Origin: Lytechinus pictus
Taxonomy: Eukaryota
Length of the DNA stretch: 64,000 nt
Assembly (NCBI RefSeq): GCF_037042905.1
Contig: NC_087245.1
Span: 23,748,001 to 23,812,000, forward strand
Direction: 5' to 3'
The notes below the pieces were generated by a model. The model saw only the letters and a program-made list of their open reading frames with translations. It was not told where the DNA came from and made no database searches. Made by a program: the position numbers and the translations under genes. Shown piece after piece: positions 28,901-64,000 of this stretch (positions are counted from its first letter, which is position 1; each line of letters begins with the position of its first letter).

Positions 28901-29452
28901 TTATCTATTTATTTATTTTTATTCAGTCATTCATTCAATTTAGTTCAACTCCAGTTGGCCGCCATTTTAACCTCCCCAACCACTCCATCACTGACATGAT
29001 GCTACAGGGCATCGAATCTTTAGGTACCCGTCCTGACTCAGTCCGTACTAGCAGGGAGAAGCTCTGGATGAGACGACTTCGCACCACCCAACCTCATGGC
29101 CTGAACATCCAAGAGGGGAACGACTGATTTTTCTTTCCTATCCACTTTCAATTTATATATACATATAATTTTTCCCCTCAGCTCTTTTGAATAGTTACAT
29201 TATAGTTTCTTACTCTACTTTCCTCCCATATCTCATACAAGCTCAGCTCCAATTTTTCCTTCCTTATTCAGGCGATATAATAATTATTATATATATATAT
29301 ATATATATATTTGTTTTTTCTCCACTCACCTCTTTTAGATTTACCACATTTGCTTATTTACATGTATACTATGGTTTCTTCATAATACACCCCCTCTCTT
29401 CTATATTTGCTTTTACCTTCTTAGGCAATTTGCTTCCTCTTTTTTACATATA

Positions 29453-29499
<47 letters not shown>

Positions 29500-38400: not shown

Positions 38401-39799
38401 TTGTTATTATAGTGTATTATGCTGGCAATGGCAAGCGACAATACCTGAACACTGGTCTGACAACAACCGTCAATTGGGGACGGCGTGTGTTGACAGAAGA
38501 GGCAGACTTAGTTACTGCACATGGTGAGTTATACTGTTATGTCATCAACATAACTATGCACTTCTATGATTGATTTATCATACACTGTATTTTATAGAGG
38601 ACAGAATAACTCATTGAATGAGTCACTGTTAATTGGGAGTCATTGCATTCGATTTTAGTACATGTATGTATGATATACACTTTCTATCTAAACTCTGGAC
38701 TGTTTCAATCGAAGCACCCCCTTTTCAAGAAAATTGTGAAAATCAATGATTAATTATTGGATTCTGTCTTATAATCAAAATACATTTATTGGCAATAGAA
38801 ATTGATTAGATCAGTATTCGACATGTGTACAACAGTATAAAGCATATGGTTTCAAAAAAATGAAAACTCGTCCACTCACCACATGGTCTACCTTCATTTA
38901 TTCTAATACCATTCCGTCCATCAACATTTCGTCTAAAAACCATTAGGTCCAATCATCACTTTGTCTAATCACCATTTCATCTAATAACCAGTTGGTCCAA
39001 TAACCATTTTTCTTTTCATTCATTTTGTACAATTAACACTTTAGTTTAATTAGACCAAATGGTACATTAGACGAAATGAAAGTAGACCATGTGGTGAGTG
39101 GACGAACTGATGATAGAGCAAATGGTATTAGACGATTTGGCAATTGGACGAATTGGCACTAGACGAATTGGAAATCAACCTTTCACCCTTTGCTGTATAA
39201 TTGTGTAATTGAACCACAGACTATTATCATTAGGGCAGCTTCCACAACTATCATCTTATATAATCTATACTTACATGTATTTCCAATTTGTACCATATTT
39301 TCTGGAAATGAAGTGCATATTTTTTTGTCAGGAAAACATCCTGAAAAGAGCTGTGTAGTTAATGCATAGATAGAGAGGTATATTATCTTTTGTTTATTAA
39401 TGTACATTTTTCCCTGATGGATCTTCTTTTTTCAGTCAAGTTGGGATCACGGTTATTACATGACCACTGTGTTCTCCAGAAAATGTAGTAGGTGTTTACT
39501 TAAATATGCAGTTGAAAGCCTCTTTATATTGCTTGTTTGGTTGCTCTCCCACAGAGTTGGGTCACAATTTTGGCAGTGAGCATGATCCGGGTGATGAGGG
39601 CGACGAATGCGCCCCTGGTAACTCCCAGGGTGGCAACTTCCTCATGTACCCTGCATCCGTCACCGGTTCTTACGAAAACAACAGGGTGAGTTCTTTAAAG
39701 AGTCTTTGTAGAAGTAATTGTAATGGCAATTATGATGGTGACATGGTGATGTTGATGGAGATGATGATGATGATGATGATGGTGATGATGGTGTGATGA

Positions 39800-39831
<32 letters not shown>

Positions 39832-45800: not shown

Positions 45801-48800
45801 TGTTTTTCATTGTTTTTTTCAATGGAAATTATTACAACCATTCAACAACTAAATAAAACCCTAAATTAATTAAGCAGACCAATTAGAATAAAAAAGTAAT
45901 CACCCTTTTATGAATTTCATCTCCCATAGACTTTGTACATTAAGTATAAAAATGAGCCATTTTTGGCATAACATTGTCTCATAAAAAGTCATGTGGTGTT
46001 GCGATGTTATACCCGTACGTCGCGAATTTGGTCTCAAAAGTTGCGGGAGACTTCAAATAAAAAAGTCATATAATTTTGCGGCGCTATCTTTTCGCATTCT
46101 GGGAATATCGTGCAAAGCATTGAGGGGGGCCATGATGGCCCCCAGTCCTTTTAGAGTTTACTTACACTATAATACATGTATGATTCAATATATATATCTT
46201 ATTAACACTATCTAGAGGCCCCCCCCCTCAACGATTCACGCAATATTTTTGCCGCGCGAAATTTTTTTACTGGCCGCTCGCTGACTTCTTATTTTCAAGT
46301 CTTGCGCAACTTTTGAGACCAATTTTGCGTCACCCGGGTACGTGGTTCCGGAATTATGCAACATTATGTAAGTGCATGTCAGACCAAAAATTGCTCAAAA
46401 ACATGAATTTGTATACAAAGTCAATGCAAATTGTGTTTTCAACCAAAAATCATAAATGTATGATTATTTTTAGTTTTGCTGGTCTAAATTTTTTTATTTT
46501 ATGCTTTTTATGATCTCTGAAGAGTCCCCAACAAATTTCATTGAAAGAACAATGAGAAACAACAGGTCAAAAAACAATGAAATACATAAGAAATTGCAAA
46601 AAACAATATAATACATAAGAAAATGATTTGATATCGCAATTTTGTTCATGTAAACTTGCTAAGAATACCACAAAGAGTTTCTATACCCAAAATTAGAACA
46701 TTTGGAGCTTTATTTAGGGAGTTGTGGGGAAAAGTATAATTTTGCATACTAATTATGCATAATCACTTAATAGTAATTCGCATGAAATAAATTACTATAC
46801 AATTTGTAGATTATGTCCCAGACAACCCGCGTGCCAATTTTCCGCGCGGTCGACGGCCGAGATCTTAGGGGGGCCTGGGAGGCCCCATCGGCCATATGAA
46901 CTCCCAAAATACCCGGCCTACATGTAGGGTTAAAAGACAAGTCCACCCCAACAAAAATTTGATTTGAATTAAAAGAGAAAAGTATAACAGGCATAACAAT
47001 AATTTCATCAAAATCAGATTTACAATAAATAAGTTGTGACATGTTTAAATTTTGTTTAATTTCACAAAACAGTTGTATGCTCATCCTGGTTGTTATGCAA
47101 ATGAGGTGATAGATGATGTCACTCACTCTCTATTTCTTTTGTCTTTTATTGTATAAAATATTCAATTTTTACCTCTTTGTCCTGTGCAACAAAGTTTTAT
47201 TATTCCCTGAACAAAATAACATTTTATGGTTTGGTCAAATTGGTATTTTTTGTCAAATCTGTAAAAATTGAAAAATTGTAAAATTCAAACAATAAAAACA
47301 CAAAAGAAATAGTGATAGAGGAACATCATCGACTCTCTCATTGGCATGTAACTGTAATGTGCATATAACTGTTTTGTGGAAAACAAGTGAAATTTTAGAA
47401 TATCATAACTTTCTCAATTTACATCTGATTATGAAGAAATTTTGAGTGTTATGTTTGTTTGATTTTTTAAATTGAATCAGATCAACATTTCAAATAAGAC
47501 TAGAGCTGAGTTTATATTCTTGGCCCACTTAAGAAGGTCCTTTCCATGAAAGTTGTCACCAATAACAAGCTCTCATTCTTTGACTGTTACAAGGGCAACA
47601 GTGTATCTCTATCCGACAAAATCAAGTTAAATATAATTTTATTGTAGATATTATTGAGTGACTGCTTTCCAGTTGATGAAAATCTGTGTGTAACCTGGCT
47701 TGGATGATTGTTTATATTCTGATGATCTTTGTAGGTTTGCATGGTGGAGTTTATAACTTGGAGAAGGTTTACGGTTCATCATGTGTAATATGAAGAAGGG
47801 AAAGGAAAGTGTAATATGAAGAAGGGAAAGGAAACACAGGCAGAAAATTGAAATGGAAAGACGAGAAAGGATGAAAAGAGGAAATTAGAGGTATTCTTTT
47901 CTTGAAAGTGAGTGAAGTCCTGAAAAGGACTGTAAACCAGATGAGATGGGCTGAATATGGCTTGAGTAGCGATGATTTGAGCAGTAGCACTGCTCGCTAC
48001 TCAAGCCATATTCAGCCCATCTCCTCTGGTTTACAGTCCTTTTCAGGACTTCACTCACTTTCAAGAAAAGAATACCTCTAATTTCATCCTTTCTCGTCTT
48101 TCCATTTCGATTTTCTGCCTGTATTTCCTTTCCCTTCTTTGTATTACACACGGTGAATCGTAAACCTTCTCCATGTTTCTATTCTGTTGTAATACTTCTC
48201 TTCTCCCCTTCCAGTGGTACATGTATTGGAGGTGAATGTAGGGCATTCTGTGAGGTCAATGGTTTCAGGTCCTGTATCTGCTCTTCATGTGAGTATTCAT
48301 TTAAGAGTCACCCACAATTGGTGATATGAAAGATGATTTATTCCCTGAGAGTATTCCTCTTTGTTTTTGATAATGGAGCAAAAACTGAAACATTCTTTGG
48401 TAATTCTATAATTTGGTGGGTACATGTGTATTTGTTGTAGTATTGTCCACACATGTCCACATGGCCAGTGTAACATGTATCATTCTTTTGTGAATTATGC
48501 CAAGACTTGAATATGCCACAACTTTCTTCTTCTTTTTTTTTTACAGCCGCCTCAGAGGAATTTCAGTTCTGTTTTTTTTTTTTTTTTTGCTGTTATTTTT
48601 CAAAAAAGCAAGTTAATGATGCGTACTTAGTCTTCAGAAAGCCTTTTCAACTGATCGTATACTCTGGCCAATGATATAATTTGACAACTGGCTGTCAATA
48701 GTAGTGTCACAGCCATACCAACAAAAACGACTCCAGATTGATAAAAAATATTAATAATAATTATGACAATTTGCAACATTCATATAGCGTCTAATATAAA

Positions 48801-51800
48801 TGTTTCTATTAAAGCGTTGTATACTATTACCTTGGCTTTATCATGGCTACCCTAATCGAATGCTCGAGCATTCAAAGAATTCCTTCCTACCGGGTTCCCA
48901 TTTACTACACCTGGGTGTAGAGTGGCAAATGTAGATAAATGCCTTGCCAAAGGATGCTAGTGCTGTGTTGGGATTTGAAGTTCGATTCTGGTTTATTGCC
49001 CGAGACGCTTACAACTGTTTTGTTGTTGTTGTTTTTCTGTGTGCAGTGGATCTCTCTTGTTACTTCTGCTGTGTGTTTGAGCCAAACGGGGCATGCTTGC
49101 CCTTCAAGGACCGCTACACTGATCTGCCCGTACCCGTGCCAGATGGTAAACCATGCGAAGCGGGCAGCTGCATACAGGTACAGTAGTATTTATTCAATCA
49201 ACCTCTCACTATGGCATTCATTTCAGTATCAGGATAATTAGCTATGGCATTCAGTTCAGTATAAGGGTGAAGTCAAAATTTCACTTGCCAAGGGATTCAT
49301 ATGCCTGATTCACAAAGCTGGATTTGAACATTTGACTCTTGAATAAAATGTAGGGTGCTCAACCATGACAATGGGCGTCAATGTGGCGCACTGTGACAGA
49401 AGCGTGCATCAGCATTGGATTTTTTTTTATAAGCGGTAAATTAAGCGTTATTGATGCATGAAATCTGCACAAACCATGGGTTCACTAGACAGTTTACAAA
49501 ACCACCATTTTGGAGTTTTCATTCATTCAGTTCAAGATTTGTTCACTTAGATGAAACAATGTAAGCCCCCACTCATACTGATGTTGATCATGGGATGAGC
49601 AATAAATCATTGTTTGGCAAGTAAAAGGGCAATATGACACGATCAATTGCAAAAAAACGATACCAAATTATGAAATACTCTATCAGAAATTTTTTTTAAT
49701 TTTATTTTTATGCCCCCTTAGACGAAGTCCGGAGGGGGCATTAAGCGTTGCCCCTTTCCTTTCGTTCGTCCATCCCCCCACTTGGTTTCCACGCAATAAC
49801 TCGAAAAATATTTAATGTATTTAAAAAAAATTTGGTGTGTAGGTAGATGACACCAAAATACAGGCTAAGTTCGAATTCGGAGTCCACAGGTCAAAGGTCA
49901 CAGCTCATTAAATATGCGAGTTGGTTTCCGCATGATAACTTATGAAATATTCACCAGATATTAAAAATGGTTGGTGTCTGGGTAGATGACACCAAAATAC
50001 GGGCTAAGTTTGAAATCTGAGCCCACAGGTCAAAGGTCACAGCTCATGCTGCAAGTAGCTGTATTTAAAAAATAGATAAGACAGCAAGACCACATTTCCA
50101 ATTGACACAATGAAGTGAGGGATTATCCACATCAAATGACCTGACTGTCATACATGTATCTTCTTTCAGATATTATTATGGAAAGGGTGAGTCTTTAGGT
50201 CAAAGGTCTAAATTTGTTCATTATATATATATGCATATTGGTTTCTGCAAGATATTAAGTTCAATCATATTGCAGGAATTTCTGATCGTGTTAAGCTGGG
50301 GCATCTGTGTCCTTTTGGAAACACGTCAAATTTCTAGTTTTTGTCTCGCCTGCATAGCAGAGGGAGACTATAGGCGCCGCTTTTTTGACGGCGATGGCGG
50401 CGGCGTCGTCAACATTGAAATCTTAACCAAGGTTAAGTTTTTGAAATATCATCATAACTTAGAAAGTATATGGAACTAGTTCATGAAACTTGGACATAAG
50501 GGTAATCAAGTATTACTAAACATCCTGCCTGAGTTTCAGGTCACATGACCAAGGTCAAAGGTCATTTAGGGTCAATGAACTTAGACCATGTTGGGGGAAT
50601 CAATATCGAAATCTTAACCAAGGTTAACTTTTTCAGATGTCTTCATAACTTCGGCAGTATATGGACCTAGTTCATGAAACTTACACATAAGGGTGATAGT
50701 GTATCATTGAAGATCCTGCCTAAGTTTCAGGTCATATGACAAAGTCTTGCGCAACTTTTGAGACCAATTTTGTGTCACCCAGGTACGTGGTTCTGAAATT
50801 ACGCAACATTAGATAAGTGCATGTCAGACCAGAAATTGCTGGGTCTCGGTATTTTGGGAGTTCATATGGCCAATACTTATTACGCATAAATTAGCATAAT
50901 CACTTAATAGCAATTCACATGAAACAAATTACTATACAATTTTGTAGATTATGTCCCAGACAATTCGCGTTCCAATTTTTGGCACGATCAAACTGAAAAT
51001 CACCCAATGTGACTATCTGTAGGGTTTCTGGTGCCTGGTCACATTTGTTACATGTATTTCTGTGTATATTACATGCAGCCTGAATTTGTTTTTTATGAGG
51101 GGGGGGGGGTTAAAGTGATTTATTTATTTTTGCTGAAAAGGGAATCTAACCCAAGTGGAAGGCTTTTAAATTTTTTTTTTTTTAAATCAAATCAGAGAAG
51201 CAGATTGATGAAATTTGAACAGAAATCAGACAAATGAAAATTGTACAAAGTTTTAATCTCTACATGTATATCTATTGAGATTTCAAATTGTCAACATCAA
51301 TGATGTCATTGTGTAGAATTGGGGGCAATTCCTCTATTTGCTCCAGGTACACAAAATGACAAATACCTTTTCAAACTTTCACCCACAGTGATAGTTTATT
51401 TTTATAAGGAAATGTAGTAAAAGAAACCCCCAAATTTGTGATAAGTACATGTATGTACATGACAAGCTGGGGGATTCATAAATGCCGCCTTTCACTTGAT
51501 TGCCAAATTGAAATGTACAGAATAGTGATGTTATCATTCATAACTTTTTTTACTCATTGTCCAATTTCTTTCAAGCTTTCACTTTTGAATACTCTAATTT
51601 TCTTTTCCTTTGGACATTCCTCCAAGACCCCTAGGGAGGTGTCTTGACTTAAAGTCCACCCCCAACAAAAAGTTGATTTTAATCTAAAGAGAAAAATCCA
51701 ACAAGCATAACACTGAAAATTTCATTAAAAATCATGACATTTTAAAGTTTCGCTTAATTTCACAAAACAGTTATATGCACATCCTGGTTGGTATGCAAAT

Positions 51801-53330
51801 GAGGGAGCTGATGACATCACTCACTCAATATTTTTTTATTTTATTATATGAAATTTGAACGTTATTATTTAAATACTCCACATTGTCCTGTGAATCAAAG
51901 TTTTATTTCTCCCTGAACATATGGAATTACCATTGTTTAACATTTTATGGTTCAATGAAGTTGGTCCTTATTGTCAATATGTAAAAAAATGAAATATTGT
52001 ATAATTCAAACAATAAAGAACGAAAGAACTAGTGAGTGAGGGATATCATCGATTCTCCAATTTGCATGTGACTAAATTGTGCAAACAAGTTTTTTGTGAA
52101 AAATAAGCAAAACTTATTTCATAACTTTGTTTATTTTTTACATCCGAATTTCTTGAAATTTTCAGCATTATGCTTATTTGATTTTCTCTATTGATTCGAA
52201 TCAACTTTTTTCTGAGGTTGACTTGACCTGTAAGGATAGAATATTGAGCCAAAATTTTGAATTCTACTCAGTGAAAATCATTGTAAAATACTCAATATCA
52301 GCCAAGAGGCCTTTCAAAAGATTCACATGTTTTAAGTGTTATTTGTAGTACATGTATAGCAGTAGTTCATGTAGGTGGGAAAATTCTTGCTCCTATTCAA
52401 TTGCATGGTACATGTATATTACCAGTGGTATTAACATTGAGAATGAAATAGGCATTTCCTGATAATAGACTCCTAAAAAACAAGCTTTGCTTATAACCAA
52501 ATGCCATAACTGTAACTGTTTTTGTCGCAGGGCCTTTGTGAGAGTCAGACGCAGGATCTTATTGCAAGATTCTTTGATGTCTTTGAAGGTTTCACTATCA
52601 GCACAATGGGTGAGGCATTATTTTTATTGTAAATTCATAAGATTGTGTTATGATGAATAAGATGTTTATAAAGATTTGCGATTGACCCGATAACCACAAC
52701 TATGAAAATCCAGCAACGCCAACATCTAAAACACATATTGGTCCAAAATGTTTTCTAGATAAGGTGCGTGCTCTTACATTCATCATTGTTTTGACAATTC
52801 AATATGCTTTCTCTTACAGGGGACACTGCAAATTTCTTAAAGGAAAAATTGTGAAAATTATGAAATTATGAAAAATTATGGCAATGATGGATTTCCATAT
52901 AGTTGAGATTGATCAAATCAATCGCAACACTTTGTGAGACAAGCCCCAGGTTTCTAATTGTGATCAGGTATTTGACAAACTAGCCAGCTAAATATTTCAT
53001 GGAAAAAGGCACCGATCAGTCTTCACTCATCTTGTCCTCGCCTTGCTGTATACTTTACATACTGGTATAAGAACTGGAACAAACTTCCTCTGACATGACT
53101 AAAATCTCTTTTTATATGTTACATTTTAACTAAATAAATCAATGTTCATAATTGTGACTGGATAAGAAACTGAATTCTGTTTTGTAAAGACATGTTGGAT
53201 GCCATGATCAATACCGTGCATATTATCTTTACACCCCATAGGTCGTATCATCAAAGACAATGTTGTAGGAGCCACTCTGATTATTTCCCTTCTTATATGG
53301 ATTCCTTGCAGCTGTTTAGTACACTATGTG
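13844..53330 (+). CDS. ADAM17: ADAM17/TACE disintegrin-metalloprotease, 19 exons (684 codons) from signal peptide to TM; cytoplasmic tail not found in window
   Basis: All exons are phase-consistent with GT-AG ends. Motifs: signal peptide, prodomain, RQKR furin site, [39 protein letters not shown], Met-turn FLMYP, disintegrin [29 protein letters not shown] (CANDIS-like), [25 protein letters not shown] (ADAM17-type TM). Confidence 0.95.
14546..15207. mobile_element. Mutator-like non-autonomous element
   Basis: TIRs ACTAGTATG..TCCAAACTTCGCGC / GCGCGAAGTTTGGA..CATACTAGT, with 9-bp TSD ATAACTAGT on both sides. Confidence 0.7.
15750..18007. mobile_element. ~2.3-kb foldback (long inverted repeat) element with (ATT/ATC)n microsatellite in the arms
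   Basis: 15750-16420 is the reverse complement of about 17570-18007; 16770-16870 is the reverse complement of 17245-17345. Confidence 0.8.
18020..19080. mobile_element. Diverged, interrupted relative of the 14546-15207 element
   Basis: Colinear matches (atcggcaaattt, ggcgaaa.ccctt, caccccatcatact); interrupted from about 18530 by a GGGGCGGTATTCTGAAA element. Confidence 0.6.
19394..20406. mobile_element. P-element-like MITE
   Basis: TIR CAAGGCTC(C/G)ACATTA, 7-bp TSD CTTACTA, subterminal GGTGGCCC motifs; inverted copy at 41507-42169. Confidence 0.8.
21208..21929. mobile_element. piggyBac-like MITE (TTAA-CCCT...AGGG-TTAA)
   Basis: ttaa|ccctaaaag...cttttaggg|ttaa; relatives at 24394, 45436, 46206, 50745. 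Confidence 0.8.
21945..22817. mobile_element. TTAA-flanked (Kolobok-like) MITE containing a nested MITE at 22151-22462
   Basis: caagtccatccca...tggggtggacttg TIRs; nested ttaa|agataaatg...catttatct|ttaa; relatives at 46930 and 51648. Confidence 0.75.
23070..25956 (+). mobile_element. Interrupted copy of the Helentron-satellite family (monomers 23070-23660; 3' end 25770-25956)
   Basis: Same monomer (aggtcacatgaccaaggtcaaaggtcattt) and 3' end tgcaggcgagactgccagag..ccactagtt. Confidence 0.7.
24394..25361. mobile_element. piggyBac-like MITE with a small insertion (24424-24608)
   Basis: ttaa|cccta...ttaggg; the insertion has TAGTCT/AGACTA ends and two units ending GAGTCTGCATAGCAGACTA. Confidence 0.72.
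26983..27112 (+). CDS. ADAM17: ADAM17 exon 2 (prodomain [11 protein letters not shown]...MLGR)
   Basis: ttaacag acceptor, gtaatt donor. Confidence 0.88.
28945..30200 (+). mobile_element. 5'-truncated Penelope-like retroelement (GIY-YIG endonuclease C-terminus plus 3' region)
   Basis: [34 protein letters not shown] matches the PLE endonuclease C-terminal pattern; followed by a hammerhead motif. Confidence 0.8.
30087..30125 (+). ncRNA. Minimal type I hammerhead ribozyme-like motif (PLE type), core variant CCGACGA
   Basis: Stem I GCCT/AGGC, core CCGACGA-A, stem II GATTCT/AGGATC, GAAA, palindromic AAGCTT. Confidence 0.65.
30418..30551 (+). CDS. ADAM17: ADAM17 exon 3 ([13 protein letters not shown]...YYMGYLE)
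   Basis: atcag acceptor, gtgaaa donor; prodomain. Confidence 0.9.
31005..31093 (+). CDS. ADAM17: ADAM17 exon 4 ([10 protein letters not shown]...EEQYTIE)
   Basis: tgtag acceptor, gtaatg donor; prodomain. Confidence 0.9.
31098..31297 (+). repeat. (GGAT)n microsatellite
   Basis: Seen directly, starting just after the exon 4 donor. Confidence 0.95.
31625..31704 (+). CDS. ADAM17: ADAM17 exon 5 ([26 protein letters not shown])
   Basis: ttcacag acceptor, gtaagt donor. Confidence 0.9.
32259..32356 (+). CDS. ADAM17: ADAM17 exon 6 ([13 protein letters not shown]..., cysteine-switch region)
   Basis: caccag acceptor, gtaagg donor; phases fit both neighbours. Confidence 0.8.
32868..33007 (+). CDS. 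ADAM17: ADAM17 exon 7 ([29 protein letters not shown]...NYL)
   Basis: Furin site and start of the catalytic domain; ttatcag acceptor, gtgagt donor. Confidence 0.92.
33451..33537 (+). CDS. ADAM17: ADAM17 exon 8 ([29 protein letters not shown])
   Basis: tatcag acceptor, gtaaat donor. Confidence 0.9.
34603..34695 (+). CDS. ADAM17: ADAM17 exon 9 (IVIHQHP...PWGVQELLE)
   Basis: gaag acceptor, gtgact donor. Confidence 0.85.
34874..35448. repeat. Near-perfect palindrome around a MITE built of 15-bp tandem units
   Basis: 34874-35110 is the reverse complement of 35215-35448; units like ACCATTTGGTCCAAT. Confidence 0.85.
35818..36391. mobile_element. Unclassified element: terminal hairpin plus IR-flanked segment
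   Basis: Hairpin 35818-35970; IR attagacatctagagc / gctcagatgtctgat. Confidence 0.55.
36412..36547 (+). CDS. ADAM17: ADAM17 exon 10 ([32 protein letters not shown]...GGICTS)
   Basis: ttgcag acceptor, gtgagt donor; conserved catalytic-domain motif. Confidence 0.95.
37428..38221. mobile_element. Harbinger-like MITE (GGG..TTCTGAAAATTGTCT TIRs)
   Basis: ttctgaaaattgtct / agacaattttcagaa termini, CTG flanks. Confidence 0.6.
38413..38523 (+). CDS. ADAM17: ADAM17 exon 11 ([27 protein letters not shown])
   Basis: ttatag acceptor, gtgagt donor. Confidence 0.95.
38865..39180. mobile_element. Second 15-bp-unit MITE (partial)
   Basis: Same units as 34946-35376 in inverted arms. Confidence 0.7.
39555..39685 (+). 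CDS. ADAM17: ADAM17 exon 12 ([11 protein letters not shown]...[16 protein letters not shown])
   Basis: Zinc-binding motif and Met-turn; ccacag acceptor, gtgagt donor. Confidence 0.96.
39730..40040 (+). repeat. (ATG/GTG)n trinucleotide microsatellite
   Basis: Seen directly. Confidence 0.95.
40432..40501 (+). CDS. ADAM17: ADAM17 exon 13 ([23 protein letters not shown])
   Basis: tatcag acceptor, gtgtgt donor. Confidence 0.92.
41036..41171 (+). CDS. ADAM17: ADAM17 exon 14 (disintegrin start [13 protein letters not shown])
   Basis: ctgtag acceptor, gtatgc donor. Confidence 0.94.
41261..41382 (+). mobile_element. Truncated SINE family B
   Basis: Close match to 1449-1570. Confidence 0.8.
41507..42169. 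mobile_element. P-element-like MITE, internally deleted inverted copy of 19394-20406
   Basis: CAAGGCTC TIRs, 7-bp TSD CATATGG. Confidence 0.82.
42570..43745. mobile_element. MITE with GGGTGGTATTC termini hosting a LINE fragment
   Basis: ggggtggtattctgag...ttggaataccaccc. Confidence 0.55.
42800..43165 (-). mobile_element. LINE (L2/CR1 group) ORF2 C-terminus and 3' tail
   Basis: [21 protein letters not shown] resembles the GDRAFSVAGPxLWNxLP end of L2-type ORF2; tail gcgctttataaat. Confidence 0.7.
43747..44561. mobile_element. MITE (GGGGTGTTTCACAAAG TIRs) with a nested TTAA-flanked palindromic MITE at 43936-44527
   Basis: Outer TIRs; inner ttaa|aggagaatgaaac...gtttcattctcct|ttaa. Confidence 0.8.
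44963..45133 (+). CDS. ADAM17: ADAM17 exon 15 ([10 protein letters not shown]...DGTRCID)
   Basis: atgtag acceptor, gtaagt donor; disintegrin cysteines. Confidence 0.94.
45436..46929. mobile_element. Two adjacent, oppositely oriented piggyBac-like MITEs (about 45436-46157 and 46206-46929)
   Basis: Similarity to 21208-21929 and 24394-25361; TTAA-CCCT / AGGG-TTAA ends. Confidence 0.7.
46930..47490. mobile_element. Kolobok-like MITE (family of 21945)
   Basis: ttaaaagacaagtccaccccaacaaaaa start. Confidence 0.7.
47759..48172. repeat. ~410-bp near-perfect hairpin/foldback element
   Basis: Arms of about 200 bp are reverse complements, with a tiny loop. Confidence 0.85.
48215..48288 (+). CDS. ADAM17: ADAM17 exon 16 ([24 protein letters not shown])
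   Basis: ttccag acceptor, gtgagt donor. Confidence 0.92.
48780..49010 (-). mobile_element. SINE family A-related copy, antisense
   Basis: cctaccgggttcccattta..cacctgggtgtagagtggcaaa..gccttgccaaagga. Confidence 0.7.
49047..49177 (+). CDS. ADAM17: ADAM17 exon 17 (DLSCYFCC...[12 protein letters not shown]; membrane-proximal domain)
   Basis: gtgcag acceptor, gtacag donor. Confidence 0.92.
49705..50338 (+). mobile_element. Second Helentron/HINE-type family
   Basis: T-run then ATGCCCC..GGGGCAT short IR, TTCG/TCCA microsatellite, two ~140-bp tandem units, 3' GGGGCAT plus GTGT..ACAC stem, CTAGTT end. Confidence 0.65.
50339..50745 (+). mobile_element. 5' part of the Helentron-satellite family (as 4568)
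   Basis: Close match to 4568-4960; truncated by a piggyBac-like fragment at 50745-50990. Confidence 0.8.
51648..52233. mobile_element. Kolobok-like MITE (family of 21945)
   Basis: aagtccaccccc...gacttgacctgtaa. Confidence 0.72.
52531..52609 (+). CDS. ADAM17: ADAM17 exon 18 ([26 protein letters not shown])
   Basis: tcgcag acceptor, gtgagg donor; CANDIS-like stalk. Confidence 0.92.
53242..53330 (+). CDS. ADAM17: ADAM17 exon 19 (transmembrane segment)
   Basis: ccatag acceptor, gtgagt donor; [29 protein letters not shown]. Confidence 0.93.
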
Positions 53331-54157
53331 GTGAGTTACTTTTTATTCAAACATTCAATATCACTTCCATGATTTATGGATATAATCATTTGGAGGGGTC
53401 TGTGTTGTAGTTCCTGACCAAGGTTTGATATTATACTAAATGATAATGATGGTACTCTCCACTTTTCAGTTGCTTTTCACTGTTTTAGGAATATCAAGAT
53501 TTTTAAATCCCAAATTTTTTGTGGTATTTTCCTTTATTAATTTGATTTTTTTTTTAATGGAGAATTGATACAGACTGCTTGTTTAATCGTCCATCTTTTT
53601 TTTTTCACTTTTGCGCAAGTCAAGAATAATGTTAGTCATCTCTTATTCATATTTTTAATAGTCGCATTTCAAAGATTGATATCGATAAAGACTATGAAGA
53701 AACAATCTTCATTTATTGGAATACATGTATGTACTTTGGATTCCCCCCCAGTAGGGTATGCGCTTTAAGCCAGGGTGGACGGTCAGTCGTGTTGAAAAGT
53801 GAAGATTAACATCATGTAGGCCTACATAACCCAGCAGGTTGAGGGTATTCGCCGGGCTCAGATTGGGTTTATTAATCTTATTTTGCATTGAAACAAACAA
53901 TGTACAAAAAGTTTGAGTCTTACACGAAAGTGTAGATGATGAAGTTTTATTATTCGCAACAAAATCATCAACATTATGAATATATATTTCTCTACTTAGG
54001 CAACAAACCATGTATATCTCCAAAAGTTGATTGCTCAAATAATTACAAAAAAAATAAAATGCCTACCAAGACATTAAAGAAAACCTAGGGCCTGTTGCAT
54101 AAAACTTTTGTCATAAAATAATACTGTCTCAAACAAAAGTTTGCCATTGAAAATTAA

Positions 54158-54320
54158 GGCCACCGCACACCTTAAGACTGTTCGCGATCCGATTTTTGAG
54201 CAAATTGCAGTTTGCTCATTTTCTGAAAATGTGAATGGAACAGTAAGATATTCCAAGTCTCAATATTAGCATCAAATTCTACTACATTTTATTCTGAAAT
54301 GGGATCGCAAACAGGTGGCC
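54158..54320. mobile_element. Internally deleted copy of the 60176-60582 MITE
   Basis: Shares both ends and lacks the middle. Confidence 0.75.
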
Positions 54321-54801
54321 TTTACACATTTACATGTAAAAAACTCTAGCAAAAATTTTGCCAGAGATCTTCCCTCTGTTAGATAGTCTAGATCCCATTT
54401 TAAAATGGAGAGCTATGATCTTTACAGGATATCACTTCATTAATTTTCTTCAGATGTAAATTGTATTATTTTTGTTATACTGTGCTTTTCCCATGAGGCG
54501 CAAAGAGCTTACAATTAATTAATTGAATGGAATTATATAATCTTTAAACTACAAACTACTGAAAAGATGGATTTTTCATGCTTTTCTGAAAATTGCTCAT
54601 AATGGAGACTGAGTAGAGTGCAAGAGCCAAATCGTTCCAGTATTTTGAAGCAGACACAGCTAATCGCTCACTTATGTATGAGTAATGAACAAGTGAGACG
54701 AAGAGGGTCAACAGCCGACCGGAGTGCTCGAGTTGTCATATACAGGCAGGATCAGGCAGTTACACTGTACTTAAAAACTCTGGAGCCTTTTTTTTCAGTG
54801 C

Positions 54802-54807
54802 TTTATT
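54802..54807 (-). terminator. Candidate AATAAA poly(A) signal of the LRR-Ig gene
   Basis: tttatt on +, about 480 nt downstream of the stop; retained in the duplicated block at 63355-63360. Confidence 0.45.
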
Positions 54808-55283
54808 GACAAACAAGATTAGACTAAGTTGAACATTCAAAGGAAGCCAGTGTAGTATAAAATTTAAGAGTGGTTGGGAAGGATTGATGATCTAGGGAAA
54901 CCTGTGAAATTAATTGTGCTGCCACATTTTGTATTCGTCGAATTAAAAATTTATTAACTGATATGCTAATATCTGCAGTGACTACGTCATTCTTCTACTT
55001 TAATGGCTGGTACATACATGTAGGTTTATAGTAAATTTGTTTTCCCAGCTTCATTCTCATGTGTAAAGACCACTCACAATATCTTTATTAACATCAGTGA
55101 TAAAGAAAGAAAAGCATTATGTACAAATCTACCATAATAATCAACAAACTGATATTAGCAACATTTTAATCTGTTTCTGTTGCCTTCTGAAAACCATTTA
55201 TCGCAGTACAAGCCTATGGTATAACAGATTTCATTTATAGTCAAAGGGATAAGCTATACACATTTCAAATTGCACTCTGTGTG

Positions 55284-58200
55284 TTAAATACAGTAAATGA
55301 ATGCCAACATCGATACAAACAATACATGACATGACTTACTAATAACATTTGAAGTAGGCATACTTGAAGTTAAAATATTATTAGTACCACATTGAAGTGT
55401 ATCTTTCCATTCTTTGGCTAATATTGTAGTACTAGTATTAGAACTGTCTTCCACATTCTCTTCCATTTCCTCTACAAGTAAATCTATAGTGAATTTTGTT
55501 TGCCCACCTTCATTCTTACTCCAACAGGTGTAAAGACCAATCATATCCTTAGTAACGTAACTGATTAGAAGTGCATTATGGGGAAGGATAGAAATTGCTT
55601 CTGGTAGGGTGTCTCTTACAGTGTTTAGTTGTTCCCCTTGAAATGTGACTGACCAGTAAATGTCATTTGATGTTATTATTGGGCAAGGTAACTCAACCAT
55701 TTTGTCACCAAGGAATGAAAGAAGAGTTTGGTAGGGCTGAGAGCACAGCAGTGGTCGGCAGGTGAAGCTGTTCTTGGCAGCAAGATCAACCACTGAATAG
55801 TTGGCATAAGCTAAAGGTTTGTCACATTTTATGGGGGTGAGTGTGTGTTTCAGAGCGAAAATAGATTTGATGAGGTCACAATTACATGTCCAAGGATTAT
55901 TTTCTAATTCAATTTGGATGCTTTTCAAAGTGAAGGTCAGTAAGCCGAGATCAAGCTTTGTAAGTTGGTTGCCTTGAAGGTAAAGATGAGTCAAGTATGT
56001 CTGATGCCGTAATGAGCCAAATTCAAAGAACAGTATAAGGTTATAACTTAAATCTAGAAACCAGAATTGATTATGCTTGTCAAATGAATCCATTAAGATC
56101 AATTTTAGTTTATTTTGAGACAGATAGAGACTGTATGCTTTGTTACTTCTTGGCAGACAGTATTTTGGGATGGTAGTAATGGCATTGTTTGACAAATCAA
56201 GAACGTTTACAGTGTTTATTAACACATTTTGACAGTGGTCCCCAAGGTTGATAGAAGAGAGATTTAAGAACCATAGATCTGAGAATTCCAAAATGGTTCC
56301 TACACTATTACTTGTGTTTCTCACAAAGTGCGCACGAAAAGCCAAATTTTCATTGAGTTCCAAGTAGAGTAAATTTGGAGTATCTTGAAATATGCTCAAG
56401 GATGTGTTTGAAAAGGGTGTAGAAGGAAACAATATGCCCTCTATATCCTGACCTTCTGAAAACAGGTGATTTGAAATGCGTGTTAAAGGATTTTCACCTA
56501 AATATATAAATTTCAAATCCAGAATGTCTGAGAAAAGACCAGAACGAAGGTATGTTATGCGATTCCTTTCCAGCTTCAATTGGAAAATTGTTCTTAAACC
56601 AATGAATGCTGTAGGATATATATCAGCTATGTCATTATCGTTCAAATCTAGAAATATCAGTGAGGATGCTGATGTGAAAGTGAAATTTGGTATGGAGACA
56701 ATATGATTCTTATTCAGGTATAGTCCCACCAAATTGGGAGAAATTTTGATGTTTTTGAAATCAGTCAAGTTGTTGTTGCATGCAAATATATTGGTTCCTG
56801 ATAGCTCACTTGAATTTGAAGCTCCAAAGGCATTATTATTAACGTTTATATGAAGAGCTGAAGTAGAAACAACATCAGTGATTCTGTTGCCCTCTGCATT
56901 GATATAAACGAGTGTTCTGTCACCAAAGAGGTGATTCAAGTTAAAATGATATAAAAGATTGTGACTGATATCAAGGCTTTGGAGGGATTGCAAGTTGCGT
57001 ATATTAATCTCCATGAATAAATTAAATGACAAGTCCAAAGTTCTGAGATGGATTAGAGTCAAGAAGTCTGGAGAGTTGATGGTTCTGAGTCTGTTATGGC
57101 TTATATACAGCTTCTCAAGTGAATAAATGGAATGAAGGAATCTAAGATCAGAAATTTTATTTTTGGCCAGGTTTAATACAGCTAGTCTTGGTGAAGAGTC
57201 AAATGTTGAGTTTTCTATAGTGTGAATTATGTTTTCTGATAATTGGAGATTTACAAGTTCAGGAAAAGTTGGAAGGTTTGATAATATTGATATTCTGTTT
57301 TTATCGAGCGCGAGTTCACGAAGTTGAGGAAGGCAAATCAGGGTTTTGTTATCCAAAAATGTGATAGAGTTTGAAGACAGTTGCAGCCACTTTAGGTTTA
57401 GCAAATTTCCAAACTTTTTCATGTTCTTAATTCGATTAGAATTCAAATTAATGTATTGTAGGTGATGACTATCAATGCCAAAGTCAACATCTTTTATTTT
57501 ATTGAATGAAGCACATAGAAAATAAAGGTTAGGAAAGGATGAGATGGAAATTTTTTGCAGGTCATTCCTATCAACATTAAGAATTCTTAATTTTGTGTAA
57601 TTCCCTCCTTCAAATAATTCAAATCTTGTCAGGCTGTTTTTTCGAAGGAGAAGACTTTGTGGTGTACTAAAGAAAGATTGTGATAATTGAATAATTTCAT
57701 TGCCCTTTAAATTGATTGTATCTATGTTTGGAATGTTAGAAAAGGCAGGTCTTTGCACAACTCTTATATTGTTTTCTTCCAAAAATATGTGCCTGATGTA
57801 CATCATATTACAGAAGGAAGAGATGTCTACAATGTTGTTGTGCCCGAGTTTGATTGTGTCTAGCAAAGGGACACTTAAGAATACATTGTCACTGATGCGT
57901 CTTATGTAGTTGAATTCAAGCGTAAGTATCTTCAGGCTTTTCATCGTTTGCAGTCTATCCAAATATTCAATATTGTTGTAGTTAATGTTCAGATGTGATA
58001 TGGCATTTGGATACGCCAACATCATTGTGTGAAGGTCATTGATAGCATTTCCATTCAAATTCAAAATTGATAATTTGAATGGAATTTTTGGTAGACTTGT
58101 GAGTTTATTGTATGCCAGTTCAAGTTCTGTAAGGTGTGTTGTATTCTGAAGTGTTTGATGATGCCACTCTGTCAGAGAGTTCTGCATGACAGATATTTGT

Positions 58201-58574
58201 AGAATGATGGGTAACGAACCAAGATATGGAATGCTCTGAAGGAAGTTAGAGTGAAGTTCTATGAGCATAAGTTCTCCTGCATTATCAAAGACTTGCTTCT
58301 CGATGTAGTGTAGATGGTTATGGGACAGAAGAAGTTCCCTCAACCTGTTTTGGCATGAGAATGACCCTCTGTTTAGCGTGGAGATGAAGTTCCTGCGCAA
58401 GTTAAGTACACCAACATGACATGGGAGATCCTTTGGAACATCTTCTAGATAGCGGTCTGTACATGTCATTCTAAAATTCACACCCTGCTGCTCACAGTGA
58501 CACGGATCCTGACATTGTGAATTACAGCCCCTTCCATAAACAGTGACTAGTAGTAGGAATATGAAGATATTCAT
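55284..58574 (-). CDS. Single-coding-exon LRR + Ig-domain cell-surface protein, probably GPI-anchored (about 1096 aa from the likely ATG at 58574; ORF is open to 58637)
   Basis: Signal peptide MNIFIFLLLVTVYGRGCNS, LRRNT (CQDPCHC..TC..VPKDLP), roughly 30 LxLxxNxI repeats, LRRCT (NPWTCNC..KCDKP..FTC), Ig domain (VELPC..IYW..LLI..DMIGLYTC..NEGG), S/T-rich stalk, hydrophobic C-terminus ending at the stop. Confidence 0.93.
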   Translation of the reverse strand: MNIFIFLLLVTVYGRGCNSQCQDPCHCEQQGVNFRMTCTDRYLEDVPKDLPCHVGVLNLRRNFISTLNRGSFSCQNRLRELLLSHNHLHYIEKQVFDNAGELMLIELHSNFLQSIPYLGSLPIILQISVMQNSLTEWHHQTLQNTTHLTELELAYNKLTSLPKIPFKLSILNLNGNAINDLHTMMLAYPNAISHLNINYNNIEYLDRLQTMKSLKILTLEFNYIRRISDNVFLSVPLLDTIKLGHNNIVDISSFCNMMYIRHIFLEENNIRVVQRPAFSNIPNIDTINLKGNEIIQLSQSFFSTPQSLLLRKNSLTRFELFEGGNYTKLRILNVDRNDLQKISISSFPNLYFLCASFNKIKDVDFGIDSHHLQYINLNSNRIKNMKKFGNLLNLKWLQLSSNSITFLDNKTLICLPQLRELALDKNRISILSNLPTFPELVNLQLSENIIHTIENSTFDSSPRLAVLNLAKNKISDLRFLHSIYSLEKLYISHNRLRTINSPDFLTLIHLRTLDLSFNLFMEINIRNLQSLQSLDISHNLLYHFNLNHLFGDRTLVYINAEGNRITDVVSTSALHINVNNNAFGASNSSELSGTNIFACNNNLTDFKNIKISPNLVGLYLNKNHIVSIPNFTFTSASSLIFLDLNDNDIADIYPTAFIGLRTIFQLKLERNRITYLRSGLFSDILDLKFIYLGENPLTRISNHLFSEGQDIEGILFPSTPFSNTSLSIFQDTPNLLYLELNENLAFRAHFVRNTSNSVGTILEFSDLWFLNLSSINLGDHCQNVLINTVNVLDLSNNAITTIPKYCLPRSNKAYSLYLSQNKLKLILMDSFDKHNQFWFLDLSYNLILFFEFGSLRHQTYLTHLYLQGNQLTKLDLGLLTFTLKSIQIELENNPWTCNCDLIKSIFALKHTLTPIKCDKPLAYANYSVVDLAAKNSFTCRPLLCSQPYQTLLSFLGDKMVELPCPIITSNDIYWSVTFQGEQLNTVRDTLPEAISILPHNALLISYVTKDMIGLYTCWSKNEGGQTKFTIDLLVEEMEENVEDSSNTSTTILAKEWKDTLQCGTNNILTSSMPTSNVISKSCHVLFVSMLAFIYCI

Positions 58575-60175
58575 TGTTGTTCTGAGAGAAGGAATTTCCA
58601 GATGGAAAAACATGTCAATGAAAGATTTGCATTTCATAGGGATCGTCTTCTTTCTCCTGTGGAAATGATTGAGTCAAGCACACAATTATCAACAAATGGT
58701 AATCCAACAGTCTTCACTTTCTTGAAATATTGTATTACTCTTATTTTTCAATGAAGAGCACTGCTTATGGGTAAGACATGCGTACATCATATGCATTATC
58801 AAGAGAATACCAGTGAGAGAATACTGAGACTAATAATAGTGAATGTGACTTATATAGTGCCAGATCCACTCTGTAGAGAGCTGTAAGTGTATGAAGAAAT
58901 TATAAGGTGAACAGAAAAGTTGTAAGAACACTTTTAAAGGACTCGACACATACAATTTTCATGTGCATACAAAAAGAATATTAAAGCAAATGATAGTGAT
59001 TAGAGCAAGCAAAAATTAGACAACAAACAGAGCTCTATTGGAGGTCATCCAGTAGGCGTTAAGACCCAACCAAAAAATAAATAGTAATAATGATCATTAT
59101 AAAAATGAGGAAAATGATACTTCTCTCTTTAAGGTTGTAATTAGCTCTGGGAACGAGTAATCCAGAATTTATGCCTCTAGCATTTCAAAGTATTAATTTT
59201 TTAATTGCAGAAGATGAATGCTTTTTAGTATATTGATTGAATGTTCTTCCGCAAAAATGCATTGTGAATAATAATAATAATTGGCTTTAACATCACGCTT
59301 TATGAATCTACAATTGCTCAAAGCGCTTCTCAATTACAAAGCCTGCTTTAATGTACGTATGTATGATAAATACTCATCAGGATTTGATACAAAAATGACA
59401 TCGGCGGGTAATTAATTTAATTAAATTTCTTTTGCTTGGAGGGAATTCTGATTACCATTAGAGCATGATCGGTTCATCACGGATGGACATTTGATCGATT
59501 TTCAAATTTTGAAGGCTTGTAACAAATTAAGAATAAGATGAGCAAGGTTTGTTTGTGTATTATAGTGAAAGGTACTAGGACAAAGTATACTGCATGATTA
59601 AAAAAGTAGGTTGCCATGGTTACCTACAAACACAAGGATCCACTAAACGTTCCTTTTCACAAGATGAAAATAGTGTTTTAAAATTTGTTGTACATTTCTA
59701 TTGTTTCTATCTAAACAACTTAACATTGACTAACAATTGTTGATGCAAATATAACACTCCTGTCTCTTTAATAGCTTTTATGTCAAGCATATTGAATTCT
59801 AAACCAATATCTAACTTCTGAGAGAATCGCAAATATTTTTCATCATGGATGGACATCACGGACGGACACAGTTAACCCACATCAGGAGGACCTTGTAAGA
59901 AGTTCTTGTTATTTTTTTGGAGGAGGTGAACAAATGCTAAATTTGATGAATTGTACATTTCTGAATATGATTGAACAGTGTTGGTTGCACAATCAAGTTG
60001 CTGCAAGTTGAACCAACTTGATTGAAATGGTAGCATGCTAGACTTTTATCTCAACTTATGATTGCTTTAAGCACAAAATCAAATGTTCTAATGTTCATTG
60101 TTTTATTTTCAGATTATAGACGTGGTACCATGTACATGTACATGAAGCTGATCAATGATGTACGGTACATGTTAA

Positions 60176-60582
60176 GGCCACCACACACCTTACGACTGTT
60201 CGTGATCCGATTTTGGAACAAATCGCAATTTGCTCATTTTCTGAAAGTGTGAATGGAACATATCATTTTATTTGAGGTTAAAATTAATTGAAAGAATACT
60301 ACCATTTTGAAAGATTGCAAGCCTTTATTTTGGAGTAAAGGTCAAATTAGTTTCAAATCGTAGCCAATCGTACGACTGCTATGACGTCATTACGACTAGA
60401 TATTAAATTCGCTTTTATTCTAAGAAGGATGATAGCATAGTCACAGATTTGAACATAGGTATTTGTACAATGATTTAGAACATTACACAGTAATATATTC
60501 CAAGTCTCAATATTAGCATCAAATTCTACTACATTTTATTCTGAAATCGAGTCGCAGACCAATCGTAAGGTGTGCGGTCGCC
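60176..60582. mobile_element. MITE with GGCCACCGCACACCTTACGA-type TIRs, TTAA-flanked
   Basis: ggccaccacacaccttacga...tcgtaaggtgtgcggtcgcc. Confidence 0.8.
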
Positions 60583-60626
60583 TTAACATGTTCATGAATC
60601 ATAATATCTCATGATCAAATATGTTA

Positions 60627-61572
60627 TAGTAGAGTGGATAAGCAGAACAATTGTGCAAATTATGACTTAAGCATGAAACTTTCACAAGTATTAGTATATG
60701 CCGTAAGATTTATTTTAAAGATGGGAGGTAAATTTTTAAATGCTATTTTTGGCTGTTGCCATGGCAACGGATTAATTTCTCCAAAATAACATACATTCCC
60801 ATGTAAATGGTAAATAAAAATGATATAGATGACCAAAATGATAATTTTCAGGCTCCCATTTGAAAACATGAAATTTAGAAATATTCAAGATCACCAAGAT
60901 AGTTCCAATTGGTCTGTTGCCATGGCAACGGCTTGTTTTTCCCCAGAAAAATAAAAAAATTGATTAAAAAACCGTTGTAGAATATGATTTATCTTTAATT
61001 TCCCCTAATTCTACAATGTTAAAGATATTTTGGTTGCTAAATGTGTAAATTACATCTCAAGCCATTGCCATGGCAACCAAATAACATCTAATTTACAAAA
61101 ATAACATGGTTGACAAGACAATGGACAGGTGGAAAATACAGTTAGAATTGACTTAATCTGTATGCTTAAGTTTTGACCCCCTCATTTGAACAAAAAATAC
61201 AGAAGTGTTCTGCAGGAGTTCTTTATAAAGGTAAAAAAATATGTTGCCTTGGTAATGCTTGAATTTTTAGTTATTTATATATATATATTGGAGCTATCTT
61301 GGTGATCTTGAATATGTATTCAATTGGGAGCCTGAAAATCATCATTTTGGTCATCTATATCATGTTTATTTACCATTTACATGGGAATGTATGTAATTTT
61401 GGAGAAATTAATCCGTTGCCATGGCAACGGCCGAAAATGGCATTTAAAAATTTACCTCCCATCTTTAAAATAAATCTTACGGCATATACATGTACTTATA
61501 CTTGTGAAAGTTTCATGCTTTAGTCAAAATTTGCACAATTGTTGTGATTTTTGGAGCTTATCCGCTCTACTA
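60627..61572. mobile_element. Long-TIR (~280 bp) non-autonomous DNA element
   Basis: 60627-60905 is the reverse complement of about 61290-61572; repeated GTTGCCATGGCAAC palindromes. Confidence 0.82.
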
Positions 61573-63380
61573 TTAATACATGTACTAGGCGTTAATTTTC
61601 CAAGAACAAATTTGCCTTAAAGTCTGTTGATCTATCTTTTTTTTTCTGCCTCAGGAATATAAAAAAAAAAAAATTAAAAGGTTGCTGATTCCCGATTCTT
61701 GTTTGGTAGATCAAGTATGGCCACAACATTTTGTCAGAGGCTCTCTTGAATATCCCTCTTTTGCCCACTTGTAATGGAGACACCATAACACCAACAGCAG
61801 TCATGTATGTAGACCCTGACCGGACCCAAAATTGTAATTGATAAAATCATATACCAATCAAAGTCTTATTAAACTTCTTAACACAGCAATGCAAGCTTTA
61901 TATATTTTCACTGTTTACTAGCTGAGCAATTTGCCTAAAATTAGCTCCAATTACTGGGCTTCAGAAAAAGGCAACCTTGAATTAAGGAAATCTACAGCTT
62001 TGGAGCAGTTTTTGCCCTATAATATTTTATTTCCTTCTGTTTTGGGATAGCTTTCAAATTCTATCTGCATTCAGATTTTGGGTAACAACTTTTCCTGTCA
62101 TTTGTAATTCAGGCCCAATAATAGCCAGATGAAGATATATATAAAAAAAAAAAAACTTTGTGAAGAGTTGTAGCTTTCCATCCGTTTGAGTACTGAATAA
62201 TTGTCAGTGCCATTGTCTGCTGCAAATTGAAAAAATTAAATTCATAATCTGGAATTTTTTTTTTACGTACGAACCTATGGAAGCACAACCCTCCTGAAAA
62301 CGACATGTCACAAAATTTAGGCCATTAAAAAAACTTGATACAGCCTACTGCCAAAACTTGTTATTTTGAGTTTTTCATCGCCAAAATACTCAGCTTTCAA
62401 GTGGTGAATACACAGAAATTGTGCAAATTCATAGATGTGCATTATCCCACTTCAAGCAAAAGACAAGATAAAATTAATGACAGGGTCTAGCAGTCCGAAA
62501 TTTTGTCATTTGTTTTATTATCATTATATATCGATACCATGCTGACTGTGTGTCAAGCACACAGTGATATTGTTATATTGTTGTATTAGTTTTACTCATC
62601 ATCCATGGCTATTTTCAAAAATATTGTTTTTGCTCCAAGTAGTTAGGCCCTACAATATAATTCCTCTTTTTAACCTTTTCTCTCTTTTTTTCTCTGCGAA
62701 ATCCTTCTCAACTTCCTACCACTCTGTGTCGTGTAGTGTCAGTTGAAGATACTGTACGCCCCGTATTTCCTTGGGTCTTCCTGTTGATAAGAGGGGCCCC
62801 CACTCAGAACTAACTGTGAATTTGATAGGTTTGTCTGTGAAAAGATGGGCAGGAACATGCACAGATATGACGGAGAAAAAAACATTCTTCAGAATAGTGA
62901 TTTATGACAATCATAGTAGTGTCACATCTTTGAAAGAAATGAGCGAATTTATGACAAAAGTTACAACGGCTTTCCAGAATACCACACCTGGTGGTCTGAT
63001 ATCCACTTGGTCTACTGATTATGGTATATTGCACTACAGCAAATGAAGAAAGAACAGATCTATAAGCATTTCTTGTAGAACTGCTGGTGTTACACCTCTA
63101 GAGTGGATATTAGGCAAATTGGGTGTTGCCAACTAATGTACCAGTTACTAAAATGTGAAAAGAAGGTCACCAACCAACTGGATTGCTCTAGTTGTCACAT
63201 GCAGGCAGGGTCAAGCAGTTACACCAAGTGCATATGCAGGGGGGGGGGGCTTAAGGGTGCGCTCTCCCCCCCCCCCCCCACGTAAAAGTCCAACTCTTGA
63301 TCCACGCCTGCACACTGTACTTAAAAACTCTTGAGCCTGTTATTTTTTCAGTGCTTTATTGACAAACAAGATTAGACTAA

Positions 63381-64000
63381 GGCTGCGTTTATGCGACCTC
63401 AAGCCAGAATCATGATTTGAATCATGATTTGAATCATGATTCAAAACACAAACATGAATCACAATATCACAGAATCAGCGTTTAGACGACCGTCATTCCA
63501 ATGCTGTTTCTCCTCAGATTCGGGCCAATCCAGTGCGCATCACTAGTGCGCAGTTTGACAGAGGAAGTTTTTCGCACGTGTTTCGGCTCTCGAAAAATCT
63601 TTTGCTTCCAGAATTCAACCTAATTTTGTTTACTTCTATCATATAAGGTCCATATGCTTCTATCCAAAATGGTGTTCGGAAGTGAATTTCAGCGTAGATC
63701 CAATTTAATATTGACACTCTATACTCATCATTGTCTCCAGTTAATTCATTTACTAGAACTTGAAGTTGAAGACATGACCAAAAAATGAAAAGTAGTGGAC
63801 GATGCGAAGACCAACACAGAACTTGAACATGACAAGAAATGCATGCAGAGTAATCATGTACATACAATGAGCATAAGCTTGGCAAGAGTCAAACCGAAAG
63901 CCGTAGCCCGACGACACAGTGAGGTCATATAATCATGATTCAAATCACGATATCGTTTATTCGAACATTTTCGTACGTGATTCTGCAGAAACGTCTTTCC
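63381..64000. mobile_element. Harbinger-like element (TAA|GGCTGCGTTT), running off the window
   Basis: Begins exactly where homology with 54828 stops; GAATCATGATT subterminal repeats at both ends. Confidence 0.65.

Follow-up and report, generated by a model that had tools for sequence, protein, structure and literature searches.

The 64,000-nucleotide stretch of Lytechinus pictus DNA analyzed here (the window) probably carries one member of a tandem pair of LRR-Ig genes, the second of which would lie head-to-tail with the first just right of the window, at a position extrapolated from a duplicated 3′-flank block and from database records. XP_063956428 is in all likelihood the existing annotation of this predicted second gene. 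The features of the locus are as follows.

13844..53330, plus strand: coding exons of an ADAM17-like gene up to its transmembrane exon, located by tblastn of urchin ADAM17 proteins.
52531-52609 and 53242-53330, plus strand: the last two ADAM17 exons in the window, with the spliced joint 52608->53241 present in runs X1, X2 and X21.
53331..64000, plus strand: likely ADAM17 intron after the transmembrane exon, with a GT donor at 53331 and an end, if any, past the window.
54670..54828, minus strand: block A, forming the LRR-Ig gene's distal 3′ flank; AATAAA stands 477 nt beyond the stop, and a T/GT-rich stretch follows downstream.
55284..58637, minus strand: LRR-Ig gene, a single-exon ORF of 1117 aa (P0121), the signal-peptide-like start being the second ATG, at 58574.
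58638..63131, no strand assigned: LRR-Ig upstream region; TTCCACAG at 58664-58657 (minus) may be an acceptor, and high-copy inverted-repeat elements occupy 60167-60591 and 60626-61573.
63132..63224, minus strand: distal part of block B, matching A at 69/89, with a left edge that is the likely duplication junction.
63225..63311, no strand assigned: MITE-like insertion of 87 bp; its inverted ends are imperfect, it has runs of G and of C, and an ACAC duplication flanks it.
63312..63380, minus strand: proximal part of block B, matching A at 65/67, with AATAAA at 63360-63355.
63381..64000 and past the window edge, no strand assigned: high-copy transposon-like element, with a GGCTGCG start after TAA (63378-63380) and AATCATGATT sub-terminal repeats.

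A preliminary description of this DNA had reported that 54670-54828 recurs in the same orientation about 8.5 kb later, and self-BLAST and alignment of the 64-kb window confirm that block A recurs as block B (63132-63381) in this manner. Self-BLAST gave two same-strand matches, 54701-54828 versus 63160-63381, and local alignment pushes the starts to 54670 and 63132; the A-to-B offset is 8,459 in the distal part and 8,553 in the proximal part. Near-identity around the minus-strand AATAAA and a more diverged flank beyond, which had also been described, are borne out by the counts: the proximal part (54762-54828 versus 63312-63381) has an identity of 65/67 plus one 3-nt indel and includes an exact 39-nt match (E 9e-24 for the search within the window), whereas the distal part (54670-54761 versus 63132-63220) has an identity of 69/89 plus a 3-nt gap, with a core of 50/61 (proximal versus distal, Fisher p=0.007). 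AATAAA is present in both proximal copies, at 54807-54802 in A and 63360-63355 in B. Treatment of the block as a simple duplicate was correct in that the repeat is real, but it overlooked the 87-bp insertion in copy B, so that copy A of the block measures ~160 bp and copy B ~250 bp. The insertion (63225-63311) lies exactly where the duplicate changes from 97% to 78-82% identity. To the right, a transposon does end the homology at 63381, as described, because the element begins at that position, its first base being the last G that the two copies share. Leftward of 54670 and 63132, no homology was found except for one unrelated high-copy MITE.

Block A occupies the interval 456-614 nt beyond the LRR-Ig stop. 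A single contig from organism B covers 54588-55176 unbroken, with 43 differences in 576 letters, and joins the block to the UTR; because it spans this interval in one piece, the block is regarded as a conserved part of the LRR-Ig 3′ flank. Four AATAAA/ATTAAA hexamers are nearer to the LRR-Ig stop than the AATAAA of block A. No poly(A) site or pile-up of ends was seen in the shallow sample (6% of reads) of RNA run X21, in which two of the nine ORF bins had reads, with the orientation of ADAM17, and the depth was only 1.44 in the bin of the ADAM17 exon. The LRR-Ig 3′ UTR also contains a degenerate 73% copy of the coding end of the Ig domain (55473-55565), located at 55015-55101 on the minus strand (E 4e-9), which is possibly a decayed second Ig domain.

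The top database match to the window protein (P0121) is another L. pictus protein of 1081 aa, XP_063956428 (P0001), with 95% identity. The two differ at 51 of 1078 aligned residues and by two one-residue indels, and XP_063956428 ends 17 residues before the end of the window protein, just ahead of the hydrophobic tail of the latter. The contig recorded for each of XP_063956428, P0121 and L. pictus ADAM17 (P0267, XP_054758702.2) has 44,300,000 bases, and we infer it to be the same record; elsewhere in the 64-kb window, tblastn found no second LRR copy or remnant. RefSeq accession order tends to follow gene order. In the older L. pictus annotation, ADAM17 (XP_054758702) and two LRR models, XP_054758712 and XP_054758724, have adjacent numbers, the other older L. 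pictus accessions compared spanning 054757277-054773484. XP_054758712 shares 98% identity with the window protein, and XP_054758724 groups with XP_063956428 (support 96/88); since the same N-terminal residues are covered by both, they represent two loci. In L. variegatus, too, the ADAM17 contig, a large one of 96.7 Mb, carries two close models (XP_041453469 and XP_041483376). The earlier proposal, which read block B as the tail of a further LRR-Ig gene, has good circumstantial support in a 95% model, adjacent older accessions and a low-copy block, and the position of the second ORF is its extrapolated part; counting against the pair, the link is an indirect one by adjacent accessions and equal-sized contig records, and the comparison ended at 64000.

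The wider suggestion of a tandem receptor array goes further than the evidence, which comprises two annotated models on this contig, other members being elsewhere; a receptor role is putative. Further L. pictus family members are found on contigs of 19.8 Mb (85%) and of 57.5 and 82.4 Mb (52%), and S. purpuratus has seven models (~4-5 loci) on one 33.64-Mb scaffold, its ADAM17 being on another of 39.67 Mb. More distant relatives (26%) occur in Diadema, and the named close relatives of the window protein are echinoid throughout.

Block B could instead be an orphan remnant, left by a partial duplication or a later deletion, with the second annotated gene elsewhere on the chromosome. The homology halts at a transposon at the window edge, the LRR-Ig family has dispersed members, and small local duplications such as the Ig echo at 55015-55101 exist at the locus, all of which fit such a remnant; however, its proximal 70 bp are 97% identical with an intact AATAAA, and two LRR models are numbered beside ADAM17 in the older annotation, which together make this origin unlikely. 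It is more improbable still that the second copy is an assembly artefact in which the allele of the other haplotype was placed in tandem. Sea urchins have high heterozygosity, and haplotype duplicates do occur in such assemblies, which speaks against the pair, as does the partial second ADAM17 model (P0271) in the older annotation; in addition, neither ADAM17 model reaches the tail, hinting at a troubled region. Nevertheless, the left flanks of A and B are non-homologous, the window holds no second copy of any ADAM17 exon, the distal divergence of 18% exceeds the between-species value of 7.5%, and two models are present in each of two annotation rounds as well as in L. variegatus.

The copy number of the block was assessed by comparing four sequencing runs, of 23 listed, with 52400-64000 at 85% likeness, the summed contig depth being a rough measure and not a copy number. 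In X5, the bin with most of block A has a depth of 97.5, compared with 61.6 for the ADAM17 exon bin and 33,852-225,513 for the MITE and transposon bins (33,852-56,724 for the transposon-like element at 63381); in X1, the corresponding values are 19.2 for the block bin, 33.8 for the ADAM17 exon bin and 1,818-21,806 for the repeat bins. The block is therefore at single-copy scale and, by summed depth, two to three orders of magnitude below true repeats. The preliminary description had named a dispersed high-copy repeat as one outcome that would tell against it, and the block proves to be low-copy by both summed depth and the window search. That the block is a dispersed repeat containing AATAAA by chance would suit a MITE-rich region, but is hardly credible for a sequence that has only two copies in 64 kb and no terminal inverted repeats of its own, that has a depth 100- to 1000-fold below that of true repeats, and that organism B retains joined to the LRR UTR. 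Rfam gave no matches across 53300-64000, and a metagenome scan with the block gave none either; a scan with the LRR-Ig protein gave 136 pattern matches, of which none was confirmed.

The X1 and X2 contigs contain up to three sequence types over the LRR-Ig ORF. The diverged contigs (41/461, 48/410, 30/310, 25/349 and 16/370 differences) are not evidence of tandem position because many of their variants match L. variegatus or the 19.8-Mb protein and not XP_063956428, which differs at just 0-1 residues in two of the five intervals.

On the preferred reading of a tandem pair, unequal crossing-over would have duplicated a unit of ~8.5 kb, consisting of the 3′ flank, the UTR, the single coding exon and the upstream region, with a junction near 63132, after which the distal flank would have drifted by 18-22%. 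The distal A/B divergence (11/61) is greater than that of the organism-B contig (43/576; p=0.012), which suggests that the duplication is older than the species split. The two L. pictus proteins are nonetheless 95% identical to each other versus 88-89% to L. variegatus, with clade support of 94/96, and the differences between them are patchily distributed (three permutation statistics: p=0.002, 0.0002 and 0.02); within residues 320-445, the window copy agrees with L. variegatus at 13 sites and XP_063956428 does so at two. A close pair with patchy differences despite an old distal divergence fits gene conversion, and later conversion may have kept the copies alike in the coding region as well as in the 70 bp that bear the signal, stopping at the 87-bp insertion. 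The 97% segment ends exactly at the position of this insertion, a natural conversion barrier. For that segment, conversion is preferred by only a slight degree over selection on the poly(A) signal, since it is explained about equally well by selection on AATAAA and the T-rich downstream element, and sample sizes are low. An origin by retroposition, in which the A8 run would be a poly(A) relic, is not favored, as only 6 nt separate this run from AATAAA.

Insertion of the younger transposon at TAA, 18 nt upstream of the AATAAA of B, would be the latest event, and this location leads to the prediction that the second ORF stops near 63,840 plus the length of the transposon. The left end of the element fits the TAA/TTA target duplication and GGC start of PIF/Harbinger, its right end lying outside the window, and the element is possibly PIF/Harbinger-like. 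Further upstream of the LRR-Ig gene, 60626-61573 is a large inverted-repeat element with 184-nt arms that are 94% complementary and with four GTTGCCATGGCAAC motifs. The inverted-repeat element at 60167-60591 has an internally deleted copy at 54154-54312, consisting of two joined pieces that are 91-93% identical to it. No LRR remnant was found in 58638..63131. X2 and X1 contigs are continuous over 58515-60213; they start in the ORF and pass the possible acceptor at 58657 without a break, with a depth like that of an intron, and no spliced 5′ exon of the LRR-Ig gene was seen in these contigs over that interval.

The LRR-Ig gene is located downstream of the ADAM17 transmembrane exon, on the strand opposite to that of ADAM17, and the preliminary description placed it in an ADAM17 intron. 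The cytoplasmic tail of ADAM17 is 69-70 aa in L. variegatus and in the longer S. purpuratus model, and 47 aa in another urchin protein; tblastn found no match to the tail exon in 53331-64000. The X1 contig that enters the intron begins at 53302, with a depth of 10.1 versus 64.5 for the upstream spliced joint. This break is where a 31-mer graph branches if spliced transcripts read G followed by a non-T base, and a non-T base after G at the joint is what the Asp of the DKK tail requires, although a sequence variant at that base would have the same effect. In L. pictus, both RefSeq models of ADAM17 continue past the donor of the transmembrane exon by read-through over 53331-53369 (VSYFLFKHSISLP-stop) and end at 53369 without a tail, which is probably an annotation or assembly problem at the locus. 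The intron assignment accordingly has the missing tail and the contig break at the donor in its favor, and the RefSeq read-through to 53369 against it, and the LRR-Ig genes are likely, by inference, nested in an ADAM17 intron. Linkage of ADAM17 to LRR-Ig genes on the same contig is seen in the two Lytechinus species only, the two being on different scaffolds in S. purpuratus. Among the 15 listed of 327 joints, none leads from donor 53330 into the compared stretch or to either block, which, with a peptide unlike the conserved DKKRA... tail and a T-run that is merely the A-run after the minus-strand AATAAA, makes it scarcely tenable that the block is a plus-strand cryptic terminal exon of ADAM17 (TTTTTTTCAG followed by in-frame CFIDKQD-stop), even though a pyrimidine run with AG stands inside the best-conserved 39 nt of both copies.

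The window protein has, in order, LRRNT, at least 32 LRR motifs (32 as counted by motif pattern), LRRCT, a single Ig domain, a Ser/Thr stalk and a C-terminal hydrophobic 15-mer. In Pfam, LRR_8 is matched with E 9e-72 and LRRNT weakly (E 0.32), and I-set is below the cut-off (E 0.06), with E 1.5e-4 in the relative P0148. The C-terminal 218 residues can be aligned with the LRRCT-Ig portion of LRRC4B, LRRC4C and LRRC4 (E 9e-7 to 4e-6), the LRRCT being visible against LRRC4B, and the Ig domain has PDB matches to Ig domains of LRRC4B, DCC and DSCAM. The N-terminus is hydrophobic by eye. The C-terminal 15-mer has a mean hydropathy of 2.27 and ends at the last residue, whereas its counterpart in P0001 has 0.15; the ORF stops at this hydrophobic stretch, leaving the protein without a cytoplasmic domain, and the 15-mer is a putative GPI-type signal. 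No TIR domain was matched at E up to 1 in any of the six family proteins scanned (6/6). Judged from its sequence, the window protein is an LRR_Ig-class, putatively GPI-like protein and not a TLR. The window copy would yield a GPI-anchored form, and the second copy is predicted to be secreted because XP_063956428 ends before the hydrophobic tail. The RefSeq name of XP_063956428 is "toll-like receptor 3", though it has neither a TIR domain nor a membrane segment.

Concave (beta-strand) LRR positions, set by motif pattern, were compared with other non-hydrophobic repeat positions as an amino-acid proxy for diversification of the binding face. The concave/other difference ratio exceeds 1 in eight of eight close family pairs (range 1.04-2.49; median 1.7), and among 18 control pairs, made up of insect and vertebrate LRR proteins, it falls below 1 in 15 (median 0.61); the pairs are non-independent, most controls are presumed to be orthologues, and the eight family pairs were chosen out of 16. 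Among unchosen pairs, P0002-P0149 has a ratio of 0.63, P0004-P0129 and P0121-P0004 have ratios of ~1, and P0004-P0125 is near-identical. The L. pictus pair alone gives p=0.14, and ten further pairs, including Diadema, are mostly too similar to inform the test. Both L. pictus forms would most likely be ligand-binding LRR solenoids without a signalling domain, with a role in non-self recognition or adhesion.

By RefSeq models, the same family includes XP_063956428 and XP_054758712/..724 in L. pictus, XP_041453469 and XP_041483376 in L. variegatus, and XP_011662286 and XP_030832010-012 in S. purpuratus, all with names that are automatic only. As a tentative and rather doubtful generalization, these proteins may represent a previously undescribed echinoid family of single-exon ~32-LRR plus Ig proteins with lineage-specific expansion, conversion, concave-face diversification, and GPI-anchored and secreted forms, which would constitute a germline TIR-less recognition repertoire alongside the TLRs, one branch being antisense in the Lytechinus ADAM17 intron. 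In the mostly non-subscription literature searched, no paper on an echinoid LRR-Ig family was found, and urchin genome papers on the immune repertoire may describe it; none of five family accessions or locus ids appeared in that literature, nor in two supplements of PMC11688612.

Several known systems share part of this organization. For LRR_Ig/FN3 proteins, Dolan et al. (2007; PMC2235866) describe a membrane tie through a TM segment or GPI, as well as genes arranged in tandem pairs. The window protein has the LRRNT-LRRs-LRRCT-Ig order of this class (LRRC4/NGL; tandem Islr1/Islr2); unlike its members, it has ~32 or more LRRs in 1,100 aa and no cytoplasmic tail, and its named close relatives are echinoid. 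LRRTM1-3 are nested antisense in alpha-catenin introns, and nested genes that the frog or chicken lineages have lost are mostly LRR-bearing, according to Uvarov et al. (2014; PMC3933685). An opposite-strand LRR gene in a host intron is the feature common to the LRRTM/CTNNA case and the present locus, where nesting is itself the likely arrangement; here, the host is ADAM17, the link is apparently Lytechinus-only, the LRR genes form a putative tandem pair, and no downstream host exon is found within the window. The sea-urchin TLR family has tandem clusters, copies ranging from near-identical to diverged, and diversification of the LRR beta-strand face (Buckley and Rast, 2012; PMC3367398). The concave-face pattern of the LRR-Ig family resembles that described for urchin TLRs, but the LRR-Ig protein, unlike TLRs, has no TIR and no transmembrane-plus-cytoplasmic part, and has an Ig domain.

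The duplicated block is an ordinary footprint of tandem gene duplication. It draws attention to a mislabelled ("TLR3", "artichoke-like"), little-studied and possibly immune family of echinoid LRR-Ig proteins, in which copies are lineage-specific and the binding face shows a hint of diversification, and it also points to L. pictus ADAM17 models that are missing the tail of other urchins.

Elsewhere in the window, 3344-3778 on the plus strand is an exon in which an armadillo repeat is matched (Pfam Arm, E 3e-4); it belongs to a gene upstream of ADAM17 that we take to be ARMC8-like. A tandem repeat with units of ~160-190 bp is common to 4567-6086, 23058-23659 and 50337-50744.
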